The notes below the pieces were generated by a model. The model was not told the origin of the DNA. It ran no database searches and was given only the letters and a program-made list of their open reading frames with translations. From Betaproteobacteria bacterium (lineage in GTDB: Bacteria > Pseudomonadota > Gammaproteobacteria > Burkholderiales > Rhodocyclaceae): a stretch of 34,320 bases of DNA. Position numbers and translations under genes: made by a program. The DNA is taken from assembly GCA_009780885.1 (NCBI GenBank), contig WQZF01000022.1, forward strand, positions 1-34,320, in the 5' to 3' direction. Of this stretch, positions 6,006 to 16,557 are shown piece by piece. The first letter of the stretch is position 1. Every line of letters begins with the position of its first letter.

Positions 6006-6133
6006 TTTTTTGAGTCACCCCAAGCTAAAGCTTGGGGATTCCTCGACACAGTGTGGGGCGCCTTCGGCGCCTGTTAGGCTATGTCTCGCTGACCCCGCCA
6101 TGAATGGCGGGGATTGCGCTCGACAGGTGTTCA
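6006..6133 (+). repeat. Family B multi-hairpin repeat, copy 1 (~125 bp; hairpins ccccaagct-aa-agcttgggg, ggcgcc-ttc-ggcgcc, ccccgccat-gaa-tggcgggg)
   Basis: Near-identical copies at 12701-12826 and 23564-23680, plus a truncated copy at 34133-34205, all in the same orientation. This copy overlaps the 3' end of the rtcR ORF. Confidence 0.8.
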
Positions 6134-7745
6134 TCTCCTGTACCGTTTCCCAGTCCAGGCCGAAACGCAGCAGGTATTTTCGTAGGCGGTCCGCGTCGTT
6201 CGCCTGCTTTTTCCTTTGCCGCGAACGGGCGAATAATATCCTTCCTGCATCGGAGAGGCTTTTGCTCCGGTGGCAGGTTTGCAGCACGGTTTCAAGCTGG
6301 CTGCGGTCAAAAAGGTCGAGTTCCCCGGAAATTTCCTTGTCCAGCATGCTTTCCACGATTCCGGGCAGTTTGGGAGCCTCGCTCCAGGCCGCGTGCAGAC
6401 GTTCGATCTCCTCGGCGACATCCGCCTCGGTGATACGTCCGCCTGTCGCCAATGTCGCCATGCGGGTGACGCTGGAAGTGAGTTCGCGGAAATTGCCCGG
6501 CCAGAGGCTTTCCCGCGAACAGGCAAAATCGAGATAACGGCGGCGCGCTTCGACATTGAAACGCACCTGCACGCCGTAATCGCGGGCATGGCGGGCGAGT
6601 TCGTAGTCCAGGTTGGGAGGGATGTCTTCCGGGCGTTCCGCCAGCGCGGGCAAGCTGAATGTCCAGAGGTTGATACGGGCATACAAGTCCGCCCGAAAAC
6701 GGCCTTCACGAATGCGTTCGCGCAGCTCGCGGTTCGTCCCGGCAATGAGCTGGAAATTGCTCTCCACTTCGCTGTCGCCGCCGAAAGGCGGGAAACGTTT
6801 GTCTTCGATGGCCTTGAGCAGCATCGCCTGCTCATCCGTCCCGAGTTCGCCGATTTCATCGAGAAACAACACGCCGCCGTGCGCCGAACGCAGCAGCCCT
6901 GTCCGTTCATTCTGCGCGCCGGTAAAGGCTCCCTTTACATGTCCGAAAAGAGAGGACATCGCCGAGTCGCCCCGCAAGGTCGCGCAATTGACTTCGACAA
7001 AGGGGCCTTTCAGTTTTTGGCGCTCCTGCTTCAACTCGAAAATACGCCGCGCGAGAAAGGATTTGCCCGCGCCGGTCGGCCCGGTCAGCAACATGGGGGC
7101 GCGCGAACGTCCGGCCACGCGCCCGATCTGCTCGATCATGATGTTGAAAGCGGCATTTTTCGTGGCGATGCCGGATTTCAGGCGGCTGATCGCATCCGCC
7201 TGCTCACGGCGGAAACGTTGGGCGATCTGGTCGTAACGGGAAAGGTCGAGGTCGATGACATCGACAAATCCGGCAGGTCTGGCGCTCGTTCCTTCACCTT
7301 CTTCCCCGATGCGGCGCGGCATGGTCTGGATGAGACGCCCCGGAAAATAATGCGCCTCGCTCAACAGGAACCAGCAGATTTGCACCACATGGGTGCCGGT
7401 CGTGATGTGGACGAAATAGTCTTCGCGGTCGATATCGAACTCGTAATCCAGCGAAAAATCGCGCAGCCGGGTGTAGACCTCCTCGAAATCCCAGGGATCG
7501 GAAAGCGCCAGTTCATGACACCGCACCTCGGTGATGGGGGAACCCTCGGCGATATCCCCGGCAATACGTCCGGCCAGTTGCGCGTCGCGTGGGTGGTGCA
7601 GCAATTCCAGCCGATCCACGGGCAAATCCGGCTGGCTGCACAAACCGACGGTGGGACGCCAGCGGCCCATGCGCTTTTGCAGGTTGAAGCCGCCCATGGC
7701 GTCGAGCTTGTTGCCCAGAAAACCAAAGACCACTGTTTTTTTCAT
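6015..7745 (-). CDS. rtcR: Sigma-54-dependent transcriptional regulator RtcR (CARF-like N-domain, AAA+ sigma54-activation domain, C-terminal HTH)
   Basis: N-terminal region typical of RtcR (MKKTVVFGFLGNKLD…), GAFTGA and Walker motifs of the sigma54 activator domain. Divergent from an rtcB-containing operon. Start taken at ATG 7745 (MKKT…); the ORF track begins 8 codons upstream at TTG. The last ~38 codons and the stop are encoded by repeat B1. Confidence 0.85.
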   Translation of the reverse strand: MKKTVVFGFLGNKLDAMGGFNLQKRMGRWRPTVGLCSQPDLPVDRLELLHHPRDAQLAGRIAGDIAEGSPITEVRCHELALSDPWDFEEVYTRLRDFSLDYEFDIDREDYFVHITTGTHVVQICWFLLSEAHYFPGRLIQTMPRRIGEEGEGTSARPAGFVDVIDLDLSRYDQIAQRFRREQADAISRLKSGIATKNAAFNIMIEQIGRVAGRSRAPMLLTGPTGAGKSFLARRIFELKQERQKLKGPFVEVNCATLRGDSAMSSLFGHVKGAFTGAQNERTGLLRSAHGGVLFLDEIGELGTDEQAMLLKAIEDKRFPPFGGDSEVESNFQLIAGTNRELRERIREGRFRADLYARINLWTFSLPALAERPEDIPPNLDYELARHARDYGVQVRFNVEARRRYLDFACSRESLWPGNFRELTSSVTRMATLATGGRITEADVAEEIERLHAAWSEAPKLPGIVESMLDKEISGELDLFDRSQLETVLQTCHRSKSLSDAGRILFARSRQRKKQANDADRLRKYLLRFGLDWETVQEMNTCRAQSPPFMAGSARHSLTGAEGAPHCVEESPSFSLG

Positions 7746-7902: not shown

Positions 7903-7919
7903 CTGGCACGGGATCTGCT
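7903..7919 (+). promoter_or_regulatory. Sigma-54 (-24/-12) promoter TGGCACgggatCTGCta
   Basis: TGGCAC-N5-cTGC matches the RpoN consensus TGGCAC-N5-TTGC with one mismatch. It sits in the AT-rich divergent region between rtcR and the downstream RNA/SPFH/rtcB genes, where an RtcR-dependent promoter is expected. Confidence 0.6.
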
Positions 7920-8064
7920 ATAAGGATAGCGGACGATATTTGTCTTGAGCAGGGATAACAGGTCAGGGGTTCCATTGCCCCGCCGGTGCGCGAGAGCCGC
8001 TTGCAGCGTCGCCTTCGCGTATGCCGCCCGCTCAGGGCATCTGGGTTCCACATTTGCTTGGCAA

Positions 8065-8111
8065 GTGCAAGCAGGGTTGCTTCGTCGGGTTCGATTCCCG
8101 ATTGCACACCA
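8065..8111 (+). ncRNA. tRNA-like minihelix fragment (acceptor-like stem plus T-arm tcggg-ttcgatt-cccga, ending …cacCCA), no D or anticodon arms
   Basis: Read directly: gtgcaag…tcgggttcgattcccgattgcacacca. The T-loop is canonical. Only 13 nt separate the acceptor 5' strand from the T-arm, so this is not a complete tRNA. Confidence 0.35.
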
Positions 8112-8186
8112 TTTGGATGGCTCAGTTGGTAGAGCGGCCAGTGCATAACTGGTTTGTCGCGGGTTCGACTCCCGCTCCAAAAAGCC
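8111..8186 (+). ncRNA. tRNA-like cloverleaf RNA (D-arm gctc/agttggta/gagc; anticodon stem-loop gccag-tgCATaa-ctggt with anticodon CAU; T-arm gcggg-ttcgact-cccgc; 7-bp acceptor with an A1xA72 mismatch; no encoded CCA). Either a Y-RNA-like tRNA mimic or a degenerate tRNA-Met/Ile2
   Basis: Folded by hand from the sequence. All four arms are present with canonical loop sizes, U33 and A37. The acceptor stem is atttgga/tccaaaa and 1:72 is unpaired. It lies ~190 nt downstream of the sigma54 promoter and inside the spurious N-terminal extension of the 8154 ORF. Confidence 0.5.
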
Positions 8187-8441
8187 TTGAAAGGGCTTCT
8201 TCGTTGTAATACCCGCTGGCTGCGGGGGTTTCTCGAAAACTTCCGCTGCCGGCCCGGCCAGACATTCGGCCCGTGCGACGGGCACGGTCCTGGACGCGGA
8301 GCAGGGAAAGGCTTGGCTCTGGACAAGCAGCATTGTCCAGAGGAATCCGGAAGCTGTCTCCGCCCCATGAACCGCCCCCGCCGCATCGAAAGAACCGTCC
8401 GCCGGGCCGGCAAGGCCGGCACTTTATTGAAGGTGAGAAAA

Positions 8442-9581
8442 ATGTTGAAAAAATTCATTGTTCGTGTCAACGAAAAAGGCATCCTGACGCGGGACGGCGA
8501 TTTCCGCGCCATTCTGGAACCGGGGCGTTACCGCTTCCTGCCCTTTGGCGGAAAGCCATCGGTCAGCGCCTTCGCGCAGGATTCGGTGATGATTGCCGAA
8601 TCGATCGTCGATTACCTGCTGCAACGTGATCCGGCGGAAGCGGAAAGGCATTTTGTCGCGATGACGCTCGGAGGCAACGAGGCTGGCCTGCGTTTTGAAA
8701 ACGAGGTGCCGGTCGAGGTATTGCCGCCCGGGTCGCGGCGTTTCATCTGGAAAGGGATGAAAACGCACCGGCTGGAACGTTTCGATCTCGAATCGGGCGC
8801 GGAATTGCCCGGTGCGCTGGCCGCCCAAATCAACCCGGCCACCCCGAAAGGCCGCGCGATCACAGGATTGGACGGTGTTTTGTTCGTCCAGGTGCCTGCC
8901 TGGCATGTGGGTGTGTTGAGCATCGACGGGCGAATCGCGGCCTTGCTCGAACCGGGCCTGAAGGCTTTCTGGCGCTTCAACCGCGACATCCGGGTGGAGT
9001 TGGTCGATACGCGCTTGCAGGTCATGGAGGTGAGCGGCCAGGAAATCATGAGCAAGGACCGCGTGGGTCTGCGGATCAACCTCGTGGCGAGCTGGCGCTA
9101 CACCGATGTGCAAAGGGCGTTTGCCGAAGTCGGAAAACCCTTCGATTACCTGTACCGGGAATTGCAGTTCGGCCTGCGTGCCGCCGTCGGTACCCGCAGC
9201 ATCGACGCGATCCTGGAAAACAAGCAGGACATCGACGAGATGGTTGCCGCGCACGCCAGGGCGAAAATGAGCGGTTTCGGCATCGAGGTCGGAAGCCTCG
9301 GCGTGCGCGATATCATGTTGCCGGGCGACATGAAGGAGATCCTCGCCCGCGTGGTGGAAGCGGAAAAGTCGGCGGAAGCCAACGTCATCCGCCGCCGCGA
9401 GGAAACCGCTGCGACCCGTTCGCTCCTGAACACCGCCAAGGTCATGGAAGACAACCCGGTGGCCTTGCGCTTGAAGGAACTGGAAACCCTGGAACGGGTG
9501 GCTGAACGCATCGACCGCATCTCGGTCTTCGGCGGCCTGGATCAGGTGTTGAACGGCCTTGTGAGCCTGAAAGCGGGATAA
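8442..9581 (+). CDS. SPFH/band-7 domain protein (slipin/stomatin-like)
   Basis: 379-aa reading from the ATG at 8442 (RBS gaaggtgag). SPFH core (…VGLRINLVASWRYTD…IDAILENKQDIDEMVAAH…GIEVGSLGVRDIMLP…) and a coiled-coil C-terminus. The upstream part of the 8154 ORF overlaps the tRNA-like RNA and is not coding. Confidence 0.8.
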   Translation: MLKKFIVRVNEKGILTRDGDFRAILEPGRYRFLPFGGKPSVSAFAQDSVMIAESIVDYLLQRDPAEAERHFVAMTLGGNEAGLRFENEVPVEVLPPGSRRFIWKGMKTHRLERFDLESGAELPGALAAQINPATPKGRAITGLDGVLFVQVPAWHVGVLSIDGRIAALLEPGLKAFWRFNRDIRVELVDTRLQVMEVSGQEIMSKDRVGLRINLVASWRYTDVQRAFAEVGKPFDYLYRELQFGLRAAVGTRSIDAILENKQDIDEMVAAHARAKMSGFGIEVGSLGVRDIMLPGDMKEILARVVEAEKSAEANVIRRREETAATRSLLNTAKVMEDNPVALRLKELETLERVAERIDRISVFGGLDQVLNGLVSLKAG

Positions 9582-9648: not shown

Positions 9649-10023
9649 GTGATGACACGTCTTTTTGCCGCTGCAATCCTGGCCGCTGCCGTTTGCGGCA
9701 GCGTTCATGCGGGCGATCTTTCCTCGCAAGCCAGGGCGGAAGTCGATTATCTGTTTTCCTGGCTGAAGAATTCCGGGTGTCAATTCAACCGGAACGGGAA
9801 ATGGTACAGCGCGGAGGAAGCCGTCTCCCATCTCGACAGGAAGCTCCAATACCTGCTTGATAAAAACATGCTTTCATCCACGGAAGATTTCATCGACAAG
9901 GCCGCGACGGGCAGCAGCATGAGCGGCAAGCCCTATCTGGTCAAATGCGGCAACGAAGCGCCCGTGCAAAGCGAGAGCTGGTTCAGGACTGGACTCTCAA
10001 GATACCGCTCGGAAAAGCATTGA
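9649..10023 (+). CDS. Small secreted/periplasmic protein of unknown function
   Basis: 124 aa with an N-terminal signal peptide (MMTRLFAAAILAAAVCGSVHA↓GD). Lies in the operon between the SPFH gene and rtcB. No recognisable domain. Confidence 0.55.
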   Translation: MMTRLFAAAILAAAVCGSVHAGDLSSQARAEVDYLFSWLKNSGCQFNRNGKWYSAEEAVSHLDRKLQYLLDKNMLSSTEDFIDKAATGSSMSGKPYLVKCGNEAPVQSESWFRTGLSRYRSEKH

Positions 10024-10044: not shown

Positions 10045-11244
10045 ATGATTGAAGTAAAAGGAAAACACAACACCGCCCTGTGCTATTGCGGGGAACTGGA
10101 ACCCGAGGCGTTCAGGCAGATCAAGGCCGTCTGCGACCGTCAGGAATTCGCGGGCAGCAAGATCCGGATCATGCCGGATGTGCACGCCGGGAAGGGTTGC
10201 ACCATCGGCACCACGATGAGCATCACCGACAAGATCGTGCCGGGCATGGTCGGCGTCGATATCGGCTGCGGGATGGAAACCGTGCGCATCGCCGAACGCG
10301 CGCTGGATTTCTCGAAGCTCGACCATCTGATTCGGGCGGACATTCCGTCCGGGCGCGGTATCCGCAAGAAACATCATCCGCTGAACGCAAAAGTCGATCT
10401 GGAGAAATTGCGCTGCGCCAGCCGCGTCAATGTGGGCCGCGCGCGCCTGAGCATCGGCACATTGGGCGGAGGCAATCACTTCATCGAAGTGGATCGCGCC
10501 GATGACGGAAGCCTGTATCTGGTCGTGCATTCCGGCAGCCGTCACCTTGGGCAGGAAGTCGCCACCTGGTACCAGAGCCAAGCCTGCGAGCGTCTGGCCG
10601 GGCCTTCCAGGAAGACGCTGAACCAGACCATCGCCGCGCTGAAAGCCAAGGGACGGGAACAGGAAATCGAGGGGGCGATCCAAAAATTGATGGAATCCGC
10701 CTCGGATATCCCGAGGGACCTGGCCTACGCCTCGGATGCGCTCTTCGACGATTACCTGCACGATATGCGGATCGTCCAGCGCTTTGCGGCCCTGAACCGG
10801 CAAGCGATGACGGAGGTCATCCTGGAGGGAATGGGCTTGTCCGAAACGGGCCGCTTTACCACCATCCACAATTACATCGACACGGAAGCGATGATCCTGC
10901 GCAAAGGCTCCGTTTCCGCCCGCTCGGGAGAACACCTGCTGATCCCGATCAACATGCGCGACGGCAGCCTGATCTGCGTGGGCAAGGGCAACGCGGAATG
11001 GAATTATTCCGCGCCGCACGGGGCGGGCCGCCTGATGAGCCGCACCAGGGCCTTCAATACCTTGTCGATGGACGAATACCGCTCCGGGATGAAGGATGTT
11101 TTTTCCACCTCGGTCCACCGCGCCACGCTGGATGAATCGCCGATGGCCTACAAGAGCATGGACGAGATTCTTTCGCACATCGCCCCCACGGCGGAAGTCG
11201 TCGAAAGAATCCGGACGGCCTATAACTTCAAGGCGAGCGAGTGA
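10045..11244 (+). CDS. rtcB: RNA-splicing ligase RtcB (3'-phosphate/5'-hydroxyl RNA ligase), short-form family
   Basis: Conserved RtcB metal and GTP-binding motifs: MPDVHAGKG, GGGNHFIE, HSGSRHLG, HNYI, NMRDGS, PHGAGR. 399 aa. No rtcA follows. Confidence 0.9.
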   Translation: MIEVKGKHNTALCYCGELEPEAFRQIKAVCDRQEFAGSKIRIMPDVHAGKGCTIGTTMSITDKIVPGMVGVDIGCGMETVRIAERALDFSKLDHLIRADIPSGRGIRKKHHPLNAKVDLEKLRCASRVNVGRARLSIGTLGGGNHFIEVDRADDGSLYLVVHSGSRHLGQEVATWYQSQACERLAGPSRKTLNQTIAALKAKGREQEIEGAIQKLMESASDIPRDLAYASDALFDDYLHDMRIVQRFAALNRQAMTEVILEGMGLSETGRFTTIHNYIDTEAMILRKGSVSARSGEHLLIPINMRDGSLICVGKGNAEWNYSAPHGAGRLMSRTRAFNTLSMDEYRSGMKDVFSTSVHRATLDESPMAYKSMDEILSHIAPTAEVVERIRTAYNFKASE

Positions 11245-16470: not shown

Positions 16471-16557
16471 GCCCAGGTGGCGGAATTGGTAGACGCACCA
16501 GGTTCAGGTCCTGGCGGTGGCAACACTGTGGAGGTTCGAGTCCTCTCCTGGGCACCA
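16471..16557 (+). tRNA. tRNA-Leu (anticodon CAG), class II with long variable arm
   Basis: gcccagg…cctgggcacca. D-arm agacgc, anticodon loop ttCAGgt, long extra arm, T-arm ggttcgagtcc, encoded CCA. 87 nt. Confidence 0.9.

Follow-up and report, generated by a model that had tools for sequence, protein, structure and literature searches.

We analysed a 34,320-nucleotide (nt) stretch of a betaproteobacterial genome (contig WQZF01000022.1; the whole stretch is called the window here), in which a tRNA-shaped element lies between the regulatory gene rtcR and an operon encoding an SPFH/Band-7 protein, a DUF5329 protein and the RNA ligase RtcB. The rtcR gene is divergent from the operon and a sigma54 promoter sits between the two; a preliminary description of the sequence had placed the element downstream of such a promoter, next to rtcR. 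The promoter motif is unique in the window and the regulator is identified by Pfam. After the promoter, 520 nt pass without a credible gene before the SPFH gene begins. Transcription probably starts near position 7929, and a CTGGCACG-N4-TCGC string stands at an equal distance from the promoter in most related loci. The leader of about 510 nt contains, in order, a 5′ module of two helices (P1 and P2), two tRNA-like modules, a hairpin and a rod of about 36 base pairs (bp). The second tRNA-like module, element 2, very probably belongs to the b7a-tRNA class (tRNA associated with band-7), which Burroughs and Aravind (NAR 2016) predicted beside Band-7 and RtcB genes, according to the preprint by Wang et al. 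(bioRxiv 10.1101/312249). All three features of that class are found at this locus: resemblance to tRNA, an adjacent Band-7/SPFH gene and RtcB nearby. The features of the locus are as follows.

6015–7745, minus strand: rtcR, with a CARF domain and a sigma54-dependent AAA+ activator domain (Pfam RtcR, 3.8e-74; Sigma54_activat, 2.9e-49)
7904–7919, plus strand: sigma54 promoter, −24/−12 motif TGGCAC-N5-CTGCT (no other match in the window; chance expectation 0.08)
7961–8025, plus strand: 5′ leader module, P1 and P2 (RNAalifold and pair counts in 27 loci)
8026–8064, plus strand: variable spacer, including GGTTCCA at 8044–8050 (unalignable; partly deleted in locus L001)
8065–8111, plus strand: tRNA-like element 1, a reduced form (fold of the window; covariation of the acceptor stem)
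8111–8183, plus strand: tRNA-like element 2, a cloverleaf of probable b7a-tRNA type (ARAGORN tRNA-Met (CAT); Rfam tRNA, 50.5 bits)
8182–8198, plus strand: hairpin directly 3′ of the cloverleaf (terminator scan; fold of the window)
8215–8420, plus strand: 3′ leader rod, an interrupted stem of about 36 bp (fold of the window; covariation)
8442–9581, plus strand: SPFH/Band-7 (slipin) protein with an N-terminal β-rich domain (Pfam Band_7, 1.9e-31)
9649–10023, plus strand: DUF5329 protein with a signal-peptide-like N-terminus (Pfam DUF5329, 1.9e-35)
10045–11244, plus strand: RtcB RNA ligase of a divergent type (Pfam RtcB, 2.5e-59)

Element 2 folds as a full cloverleaf whose score against the Rfam tRNA model lies well above the cut-off of 29 bits, with pair 1:72 as the sole non-standard one in the alignment. 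The acceptor strands, AUUUGGA and UCCAAAA, oppose A1 to A72; the D arm reads GCUC-AGUUGGUA-GAGC, the variable loop UUGUC and the T arm GCGGG-UUCGACU-CCCGC. The anticodon arm, GCCAG-UGCAUAA-CUGGU, presents a CAU triplet and carries G at position 33, a residue that went unmentioned in the preliminary description; U33 is nearly universal in tRNA anticodon loops. The nucleotides that make tertiary contacts in tRNA are in place (U8, A14, G18G19, U54U55C56 and A58). A73 is followed by GCC and no CCA is encoded, while the genuine tRNA-Leu of the same window (16471–16557) does encode CCA. The arms, the A1×A72 mismatch and the missing CCA had all been read from the letters by hand, and they are borne out by the sequence, by ARAGORN and by Rfam. 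The element ends 258 nt before the SPFH start, on the same strand, and the minimum-free-energy fold of the window reproduces element 1, element 2 and the hairpin 3′ of the cloverleaf. This last hairpin recurs in most related loci at the same position with another sequence; in the clade of the window, an A-run and a U-rich run flank it in the manner of a terminator.

We compared the window with 80 loci from Beta- and Gammaproteobacteria, chosen through an alignment of SPFH homologues. The closest, with 92% SPFH identity, comes from a termite-gut betaproteobacterial metagenome-assembled genome. A divergent rtcR lies upstream in about 62 of the 80 and RtcB follows SPFH in about 65, and the whole arrangement of rtcR, promoter, SPFH and RtcB is found in about 60, spread over both classes. 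ARAGORN places a tRNA-like call about 260–340 nt upstream of SPFH in most loci, and two tandem overlapping calls in many Pseudomonas loci; in related loci the element lies some 250–320 nt ahead of the SPFH start. The identities assigned vary from locus to locus: Met, Asn, Lys, Ile, Val, Arg, Ser, Leu, Thr, or undefined with 2-nt or 4-nt “anticodons”. Even the orthologues of the closest relatives read CAT, GTT, TTT or GAT, or carry loops of 4–6 nt.

A covariance model that we built from 48 copies of element 2 matches the window and 70 of the 80 related loci at 64–97 bits. The alignment counts below refer to these 71 sequences and the pair counts to 70. An alignment of the intergenic regions for compensatory changes had been set beforehand as the test of the cloverleaf, and such changes are abundant: 92% of the cells are paired, and covariation scores 0.379, where shuffled alignments give 0.135 (none of 500 reaches the observed value) and slid partners 0.11 at most. 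Changes on both sides of a pair occur at all five pairs of the anticodon stem, three of five in the T stem and five of seven in the acceptor, while the D stem is invariant. The acceptor is frayed at its end, with 1:72 unpaired in 52 sequences, 2:71 in 33 and 3:70 in 19. Because 52 of the 70 sequences are unpaired there, the 1:72 mismatch is a trait of the family, and the acceptor helix of element 2, as read from these alignments, has just 4–6 bp. The elbow of the molecule is nearly fixed: of the 71 sequences, 70 have A14 and all have the D-loop GG and the T loop UUCRANU. Sequences of the D and T arms are near-invariant across the two proteobacterial classes. None of the 71 sequences encodes CCA after element 2.

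The anticodon loop behaves differently from the remaining molecule. It has 7 nt in 35 of the 71 sequences, and many of the others carry a tetraloop (UUCG, GAAA or GCAA), which may or may not be closed by an additional pair. Seventeen different triplets occur among the 7-nt loops, and 12 of these 35 loops have a nucleotide other than U at position 33. Compared within clades, the loop has diverged at about the rate of SPFH third codon positions or above it, and the remainder of the molecule is under constraint. These comparisons show selection on the tRNA elbow (D-loop GG and T-loop UUCRANU), the stems and the short acceptor helix, and not on the anticodon loop. Since the anticodon varies freely, 1:72 is mostly unpaired and CCA is lacking, element 2 is, on this comparative evidence, a non-decoding tRNA look-alike.

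A genuine decoding tRNA, whether elongator or initiator tRNA-Met or tRNA-Ile2, is therefore highly improbable. The likeness to canonical tRNA-Met is real: ARAGORN and Rfam both return a tRNA, and the cloverleaf, all the elbow and tertiary nucleotides, the CAU triplet and A73 are present. A canonical decoding tRNA has a 7-bp acceptor, CCA, U33 and an anticodon conserved among orthologues, none of which element 2 shares; it has instead G33, A1×A72 and no CCA, and its orthologues have varying anticodons or loops of 4–6 nt. Bacterial initiator tRNA, which also has a mismatch at 1:72, is marked by C1×A72, three G:C pairs at 29–31:39–41 and A11:U24. These marks are missing from element 2, which has A1×A72, the anticodon stem GCCAG/CUGGU and C11:G24. 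The element also sits in an mRNA leader under a stress promoter. In Pseudomonas aeruginosa, the counterpart is annotated as tRNA-Arg4 (PA4581.1) and lies between rtcR and PA4582–PA4585 (PMC13637947), an annotation that speaks for a decoding role; a 2026 paper remarks that its D loop is odd (PMC13637947). Like element 2, it lacks CCA and departs from the rules of its nominal identity. The view in the preliminary description that the element mimics tRNA and is no housekeeping tRNA-Met is thus upheld, with the cloverleaf conserved, the anticodon not, and the 1:72 pair and CCA lacking across the family.

The preliminary description had suggested that the mimic could be a substrate, a decoy or a feedback ligand. 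The freedom of the anticodon loop also bears on a sentinel or decoy role, which we regard as unlikely. Here ribotoxins (anticodon nucleases) would cut the tRNA-like modules, the 5′ pieces that carry a terminal 2′,3′-cyclic phosphate would bind the CARF domain of RtcR and boost the operon, and RtcB would reseal the RNA and switch the signal off. RtcR does bind 5′ halves of tRNA with a cyclic-phosphate end (PMC7790460), and a tRNA-like element lies here in cis with repair genes. Some loops do resemble anticodon loops, such as CCACGAA in Pseudomonas, which is close to tRNA-Arg(ACG), and UGCAUAA in the window, which is close to the Met loop. In the Pseudomonas nitroreducens group, loop divergence reaches 0.52 against 0.23 at third codon positions, as an arms race would give, but it is about neutral in the remaining clades. 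About half of the family, moreover, has 4–6-nt loops, mostly UUCG or GNRA, which would be poor targets for anticodon nucleases; a damage-induced nuclease did not cleave Salmonella YrlA, according to the literature; and three loci retain the leader without any tRNA-like module. Because about half of the relatives have 4–6-nt loops and the loop elsewhere drifts about neutrally, the comparison argues against a conserved decoy role that depends on a specific anticodon.

Immediately upstream, element 1 is a second, truncated tRNA-like module. Its acceptor strand GUGCAA (8065–8070) pairs with UUGCAC (8102–8107), its T arm is UCGGG-UUCGAUU-CCCGA (8085–8101), and ACCA follows at 8108–8111. The preliminary description had recognized the acceptor stem, the T arm and the CCA end, all of which stand, and had denied the element a D arm, which does not: the 14 nt within 8071–8084 form a small hairpin with GG in its loop. 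The middle piece measures 13–28 nt in relatives and reads CUC-..GG..-GAG in many loci, and by this comparison the hairpin is a remnant of the D arm. Element 1 is a complete cloverleaf in Pseudomonas and reduced in most Betaproteobacteria, the window included, and two GTTCRA T loops lie about 72–76 nt apart in nearly all related loci. Variation in the length of the middle part defeated alignment by MAFFT and RNAalifold, and the stems of element 1 were assessed by an anchored search with a permutation control. Of 66 loci, 37 have an acceptor stem with six or more contiguous pairs, where the permuted data average 6.1 and never exceed 12; each position shows four to six pair types. In many Betaproteobacteria, RCCA follows the acceptor of element 1 and abuts the 5′ strand of element 2.

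The two T arms account for half of the four T-loop motifs that had been noted in this region. GGTTCSA matches four times in 200 nt here and 14 times in the entire 34-kb window; the T arms are the two GGTTCGA copies. The GGTTCCA strings at 7968 and 8044 do exist, and neither is retained as a T loop: the first is the loop of the conserved P1 hairpin, and the second is not conserved in the closest relative, L001.

The tRNA-like modules are embedded in further conserved structures. In the 5′ module, the P1 hairpin (7961–7984) carries GGTTCCA (7968) in its loop and is followed by the P2 helix (7985–7997/8011–8025), which has near-invariant strands, CCGGUGCG and CGYA[UG]CCG, and a 2-nt bulge. Changes on both sides are seen at five of six pairs in P1 and eight of 13 in P2 among 27 loci. 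The rod comprises helices 8215–8221/8414–8420, 8247–8267/8392–8412 and 8273–8286/8373–8386, with a side hairpin at 8222–8246; it ends 21 nt before the SPFH start codon and adjoins the ribosome-binding site. It folds in the window at −116.8 kcal/mol (z = −4.75) and has pairs changed on both sides in Betaproteobacteria (15 of 18 and nine of 11). An independent analysis of 15 Pseudomonas loci, three of them lacking any tRNA-like module, gave the same rod architecture; it has 46 pairs there, 26 of them with compensatory changes. Aligned as a whole in 27 Betaproteobacteria, the leader has 83 consensus pairs in 12 helices with 95.4% of the cells paired; 52 pairs are changed on both sides, where shuffled alignments give 29.6 (0 of 500 reach this), and covariation scores 0.411, a value that falls to 0.19 on shuffling and to 0.12 or less when the partners are slid. 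Neither the 5′ module nor the rod matches any Rfam family at gathering or E-value thresholds in the window and 11 related loci; the same searches returned tRNA matches and one sub-threshold YrlA match, and nothing else.

Several other features attach to the 3′ part of the leader. The SPFH frame stays open for 96 codons 5′ of the ATG (8154–8441, plus strand), across the rod. A coding reading of this interval was dropped in favour of RNA structure, given the compensatory changes in the interval and its numerous G-U pairs, which are particular to the plus strand. Database SPFH proteins of 475–525 amino acids (P0001 and P0090) probably have wrongly extended start sites. Adjoining the rod on its 5′ side, at 8207–8214, is a conserved GCAGUA(CCC) motif that is single-stranded and, in some leaders (L002, L007 and L077), duplicated. 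Four GCCGGC-type palindromes (8215–8257 and 8404–8420, plus strand) permit local hairpins in place of the rod, and the 3′-most of them, followed by ACUUUAUU, resembles a terminator. The local hairpin between palindromes 1 and 2 has 89% of the cells paired, which fits this folding, and little covariation beyond the side hairpin; that between 3 and 4 has 51% of the cells paired and poor column registration. In Comamonadaceae-type loci (L051, 4145–5483; L066, L069, L072, L074, L078 and L079), the same leader occurs without rtcR and the sigma54 promoter, and upstream of it lie an HNH-like open reading frame and four to seven ordinary-looking tRNA genes (Asp, Phe, Arg, Pro, His and Glu).

The proteins of the operon are themselves unusual. 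An AlphaFold2 model of the SPFH protein (mean predicted local distance difference test, pLDDT, 80) contains N-terminal β-rich repeats, the SPFH domain and long helices. Foldseek matches this model to stomatin, HflK/C and prohibitin, and to major vault protein over its whole length; judging from the model, the protein may be a soluble vault-like cage or scaffold. Its N-terminal β-rich domain of about 145 amino acids has no Pfam match. The DUF5329 gene between SPFH and rtcB is present in the window only, being found in none of the 80 related loci, and is probably an insertion foreign to the system. RtcB of the window is 81–84% identical to RtcB of L001 and L002 and about 30% identical to that of other loci. 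Since the identity to those other loci is only about 30% for RtcB while it is 60–65% for SPFH and RtcR, the sequences suggest a displacement of the ligase in the window, L001 and L002. No rtcA lies downstream of rtcB in the window.

What, then, does the tRNA-like RNA do? We lean towards the explanation that a non-decoding RNA of b7a-tRNA type, with its truncated copy, is carried in the RtcR/sigma54 leader, released from it, and serves as an RNA partner of SPFH and RtcB. On the side of this reading, the P. aeruginosa homologue PA4581.1 is detectably expressed (PMC13637947), and a further study ranks it with the genes most strongly up-regulated in a cystic-fibrosis isolate from a late stage (PMC8743555). 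Both tRNA-like modules would be transcribed from the RtcR/sigma54 promoter within the structured leader of about 510 nt that precedes SPFH–RtcB, and would fold into L-shapes seen by the enzymes of tRNA maturation. RNase P may cut at the 5′ sides of the modules, for which the YrlA RNA of Mycobacterium smegmatis, cut by RNase P and given CCA, offers a precedent (PMC4201824). The ACCA of element 1 and the hairpin 3′ of element 2 could define or protect the 3′ ends, and stable tRNA-like RNAs would thereby be set free from the leader. With no role in translation, the released RNAs would act by shape, as a cofactor or scaffold for the vault-like SPFH protein and RtcB, much as YrlA does for Rsr. This cofactor mechanism, drawn by analogy, is a tentative proposal to which we give rather less than even credence.

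Several observations weigh against this explanation. In P. aeruginosa, the level of PA4581.1 is unchanged when the Rtc proteins are induced (PMC13637947), a poor fit to strict co-transcription of the RNA with the operon. RNase P does not cut YrlA RNAs that lack a 7-bp stem, as Chen et al. reported, and the acceptor of element 2 has just 4–6 bp. Finally, the tRNA-like modules number from none to two per locus while the 5′ module and the rod stay: five loci have one module only (L006, L024, L064, L073 and L076), and three Pseudomonas loci (L038, L039 and L067) have none and keep the leader. Because the copy number drops to zero where the 5′ module and rod persist, some lineages do without the tRNA-like modules, and the structures on either side are perhaps the functional core.

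The variable number of modules also speaks for a purely cis-acting device. On such a reading, RNase P or RNase Z would cut the leader, thereby setting the 5′ end or half-life of the SPFH–RtcB mRNA or splitting off a 5′ small RNA, and the excised pieces would be functionless. The 5′ module and the rod beside the ribosome-binding site are more universally conserved than the tRNA-like modules, and the terminator-like hairpin after element 2 in the clade of the window fits as well. We nevertheless consider this reading quite unlikely. The near-invariance of the D- and T-arm sequences in two proteobacterial classes goes far beyond the need of a cleavage signal, the anticodon stem, which RNase P can dispense with, has compensatory changes at all five pairs, and the P. 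aeruginosa RNA accumulates, reaching about half the level of canonical tRNA by quantitative reverse-transcription PCR (PMC13637947).

A broader possibility, which we find doubtful, is that the composite leader of about 510 nt is an undescribed structured RNA in which the P1–P2 module and the rod are the constant parts and the tRNA look-alikes are optional inserts. The leader as a whole would then be the true partner or the cis-regulator of the vault-like SPFH–RtcB system, and it may switch between the rod and the local GCCGGC hairpins upon RNA damage or ligation.

For the substrates and cofactors of bacterial RtcB and of the Rtc system, a tRNA-shaped RNA encoded in the operon and selected for its shape is a direct lead to what SPFH and RtcB recognize. 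The comparative picture offers constructs for such work: the two elbows in tandem, the acceptor with its frayed end, the truncated copy with its ACCA, a free anticodon loop, and two covarying modules that persist where the tRNA-like ones are lost. It also calls for caution in annotation, as “tRNA-Met”, “tRNA-Arg4” and similar calls in the intergenic regions between rtcR and SPFH do not denote decoding tRNAs. Overall, the preliminary description was right at its core, that this is a tRNA mimic, and wrong in placing it among the Y RNAs; the class had already been predicted as b7a-tRNA.

Among known RNAs, YrlA is the closest in setting. It too has a tRNA-mimic domain encoded in an operon, with the canonical D- and T-loop nucleotides and a long stem in the transcript, often together with RtcR/sigma54 and RtcB; the literature places YrlA genes in RtcR-controlled rtcB operons, and occasionally beside Band-7 genes according to Wang et al. 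(bioRxiv 10.1101/312249). The Rfam YrlA model (RF02553) also finds 8058–8163, at 28.2 bits (E = 7.5e-4 in a searched stretch of 751 nt), but this falls short of the cut-off (69) by 41 bits. What the model aligns is the element 1 T arm joined with the D arm of element 2; between them, the acceptor-like hairpin that it requires cannot form. YrlA has a permuted order of T arm, closed acceptor-like hairpin and D arm, nested in the Rsr-binding stem, whereas the order here is normal and the acceptor stems are open; its long stem encloses the tRNA-like domain, while the long stem here is the separate 3′ rod. Near its 5′ end, YrlA carries a GNCGAAN0-1G motif, a putative contact with Rsr; by eye, no conserved match lies near the probable 5′ end at 7929–7960, and GCCGAANG-like strings occur in some loci only, within the 3′ rod. 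The YrlA gene lies within 4 kb of rsr on the same strand, and Pfam finds no TROVE/Rsr match among rtcR, SPFH, DUF5329 and RtcB. Given this score and the absence of an Rsr/TROVE gene from the operon, the proposed Y-RNA membership falls, and a YrlA-type Y RNA binding Rsr (Ro60) is barely credible.

Two further systems share single aspects of this locus. The vault particle is relevant by analogy only: the SPFH protein has β-repeats, long helices and an SPFH “shoulder”, Foldseek pairs its model with major vault protein, and a small structured noncoding RNA lies beside its gene. Vault RNA itself has no sequence or structural relation to the RNA described here, and a cage of the bacterial protein is hypothetical. 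Longer transcripts can carry tRNA-like processing signals, as in MALAT1 mascRNA and in bacterial co-transcripts of tRNA and mRNA. The leader is alike in holding tRNA-shaped modules within a longer transcript that RNase P or RNase Z could cut; it differs in that its conservation exceeds what cleavage needs and is tied to one protein family.

The best match remains the b7a-tRNA, an intergenic tRNA-like gene beside Band-7/SPFH and rtcB genes, often under RtcR control, in the accounts of the class that were consulted, and no feature of this locus speaks against membership. Wang et al. describe it there as “strongly resembling an authentic tRNA”, with no experimental validation (bioRxiv 10.1101/312249), and no Rfam family for it was found in the searches of the window and 11 related loci. 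As far as they extend, these accounts are without a second, truncated copy ending in ACCA, a frayed acceptor, tetraloop exchanges in the anticodon loop, or a covarying 5′ module and rod, all of which are seen here. The composite structured leader around the tRNA-like element may be new.

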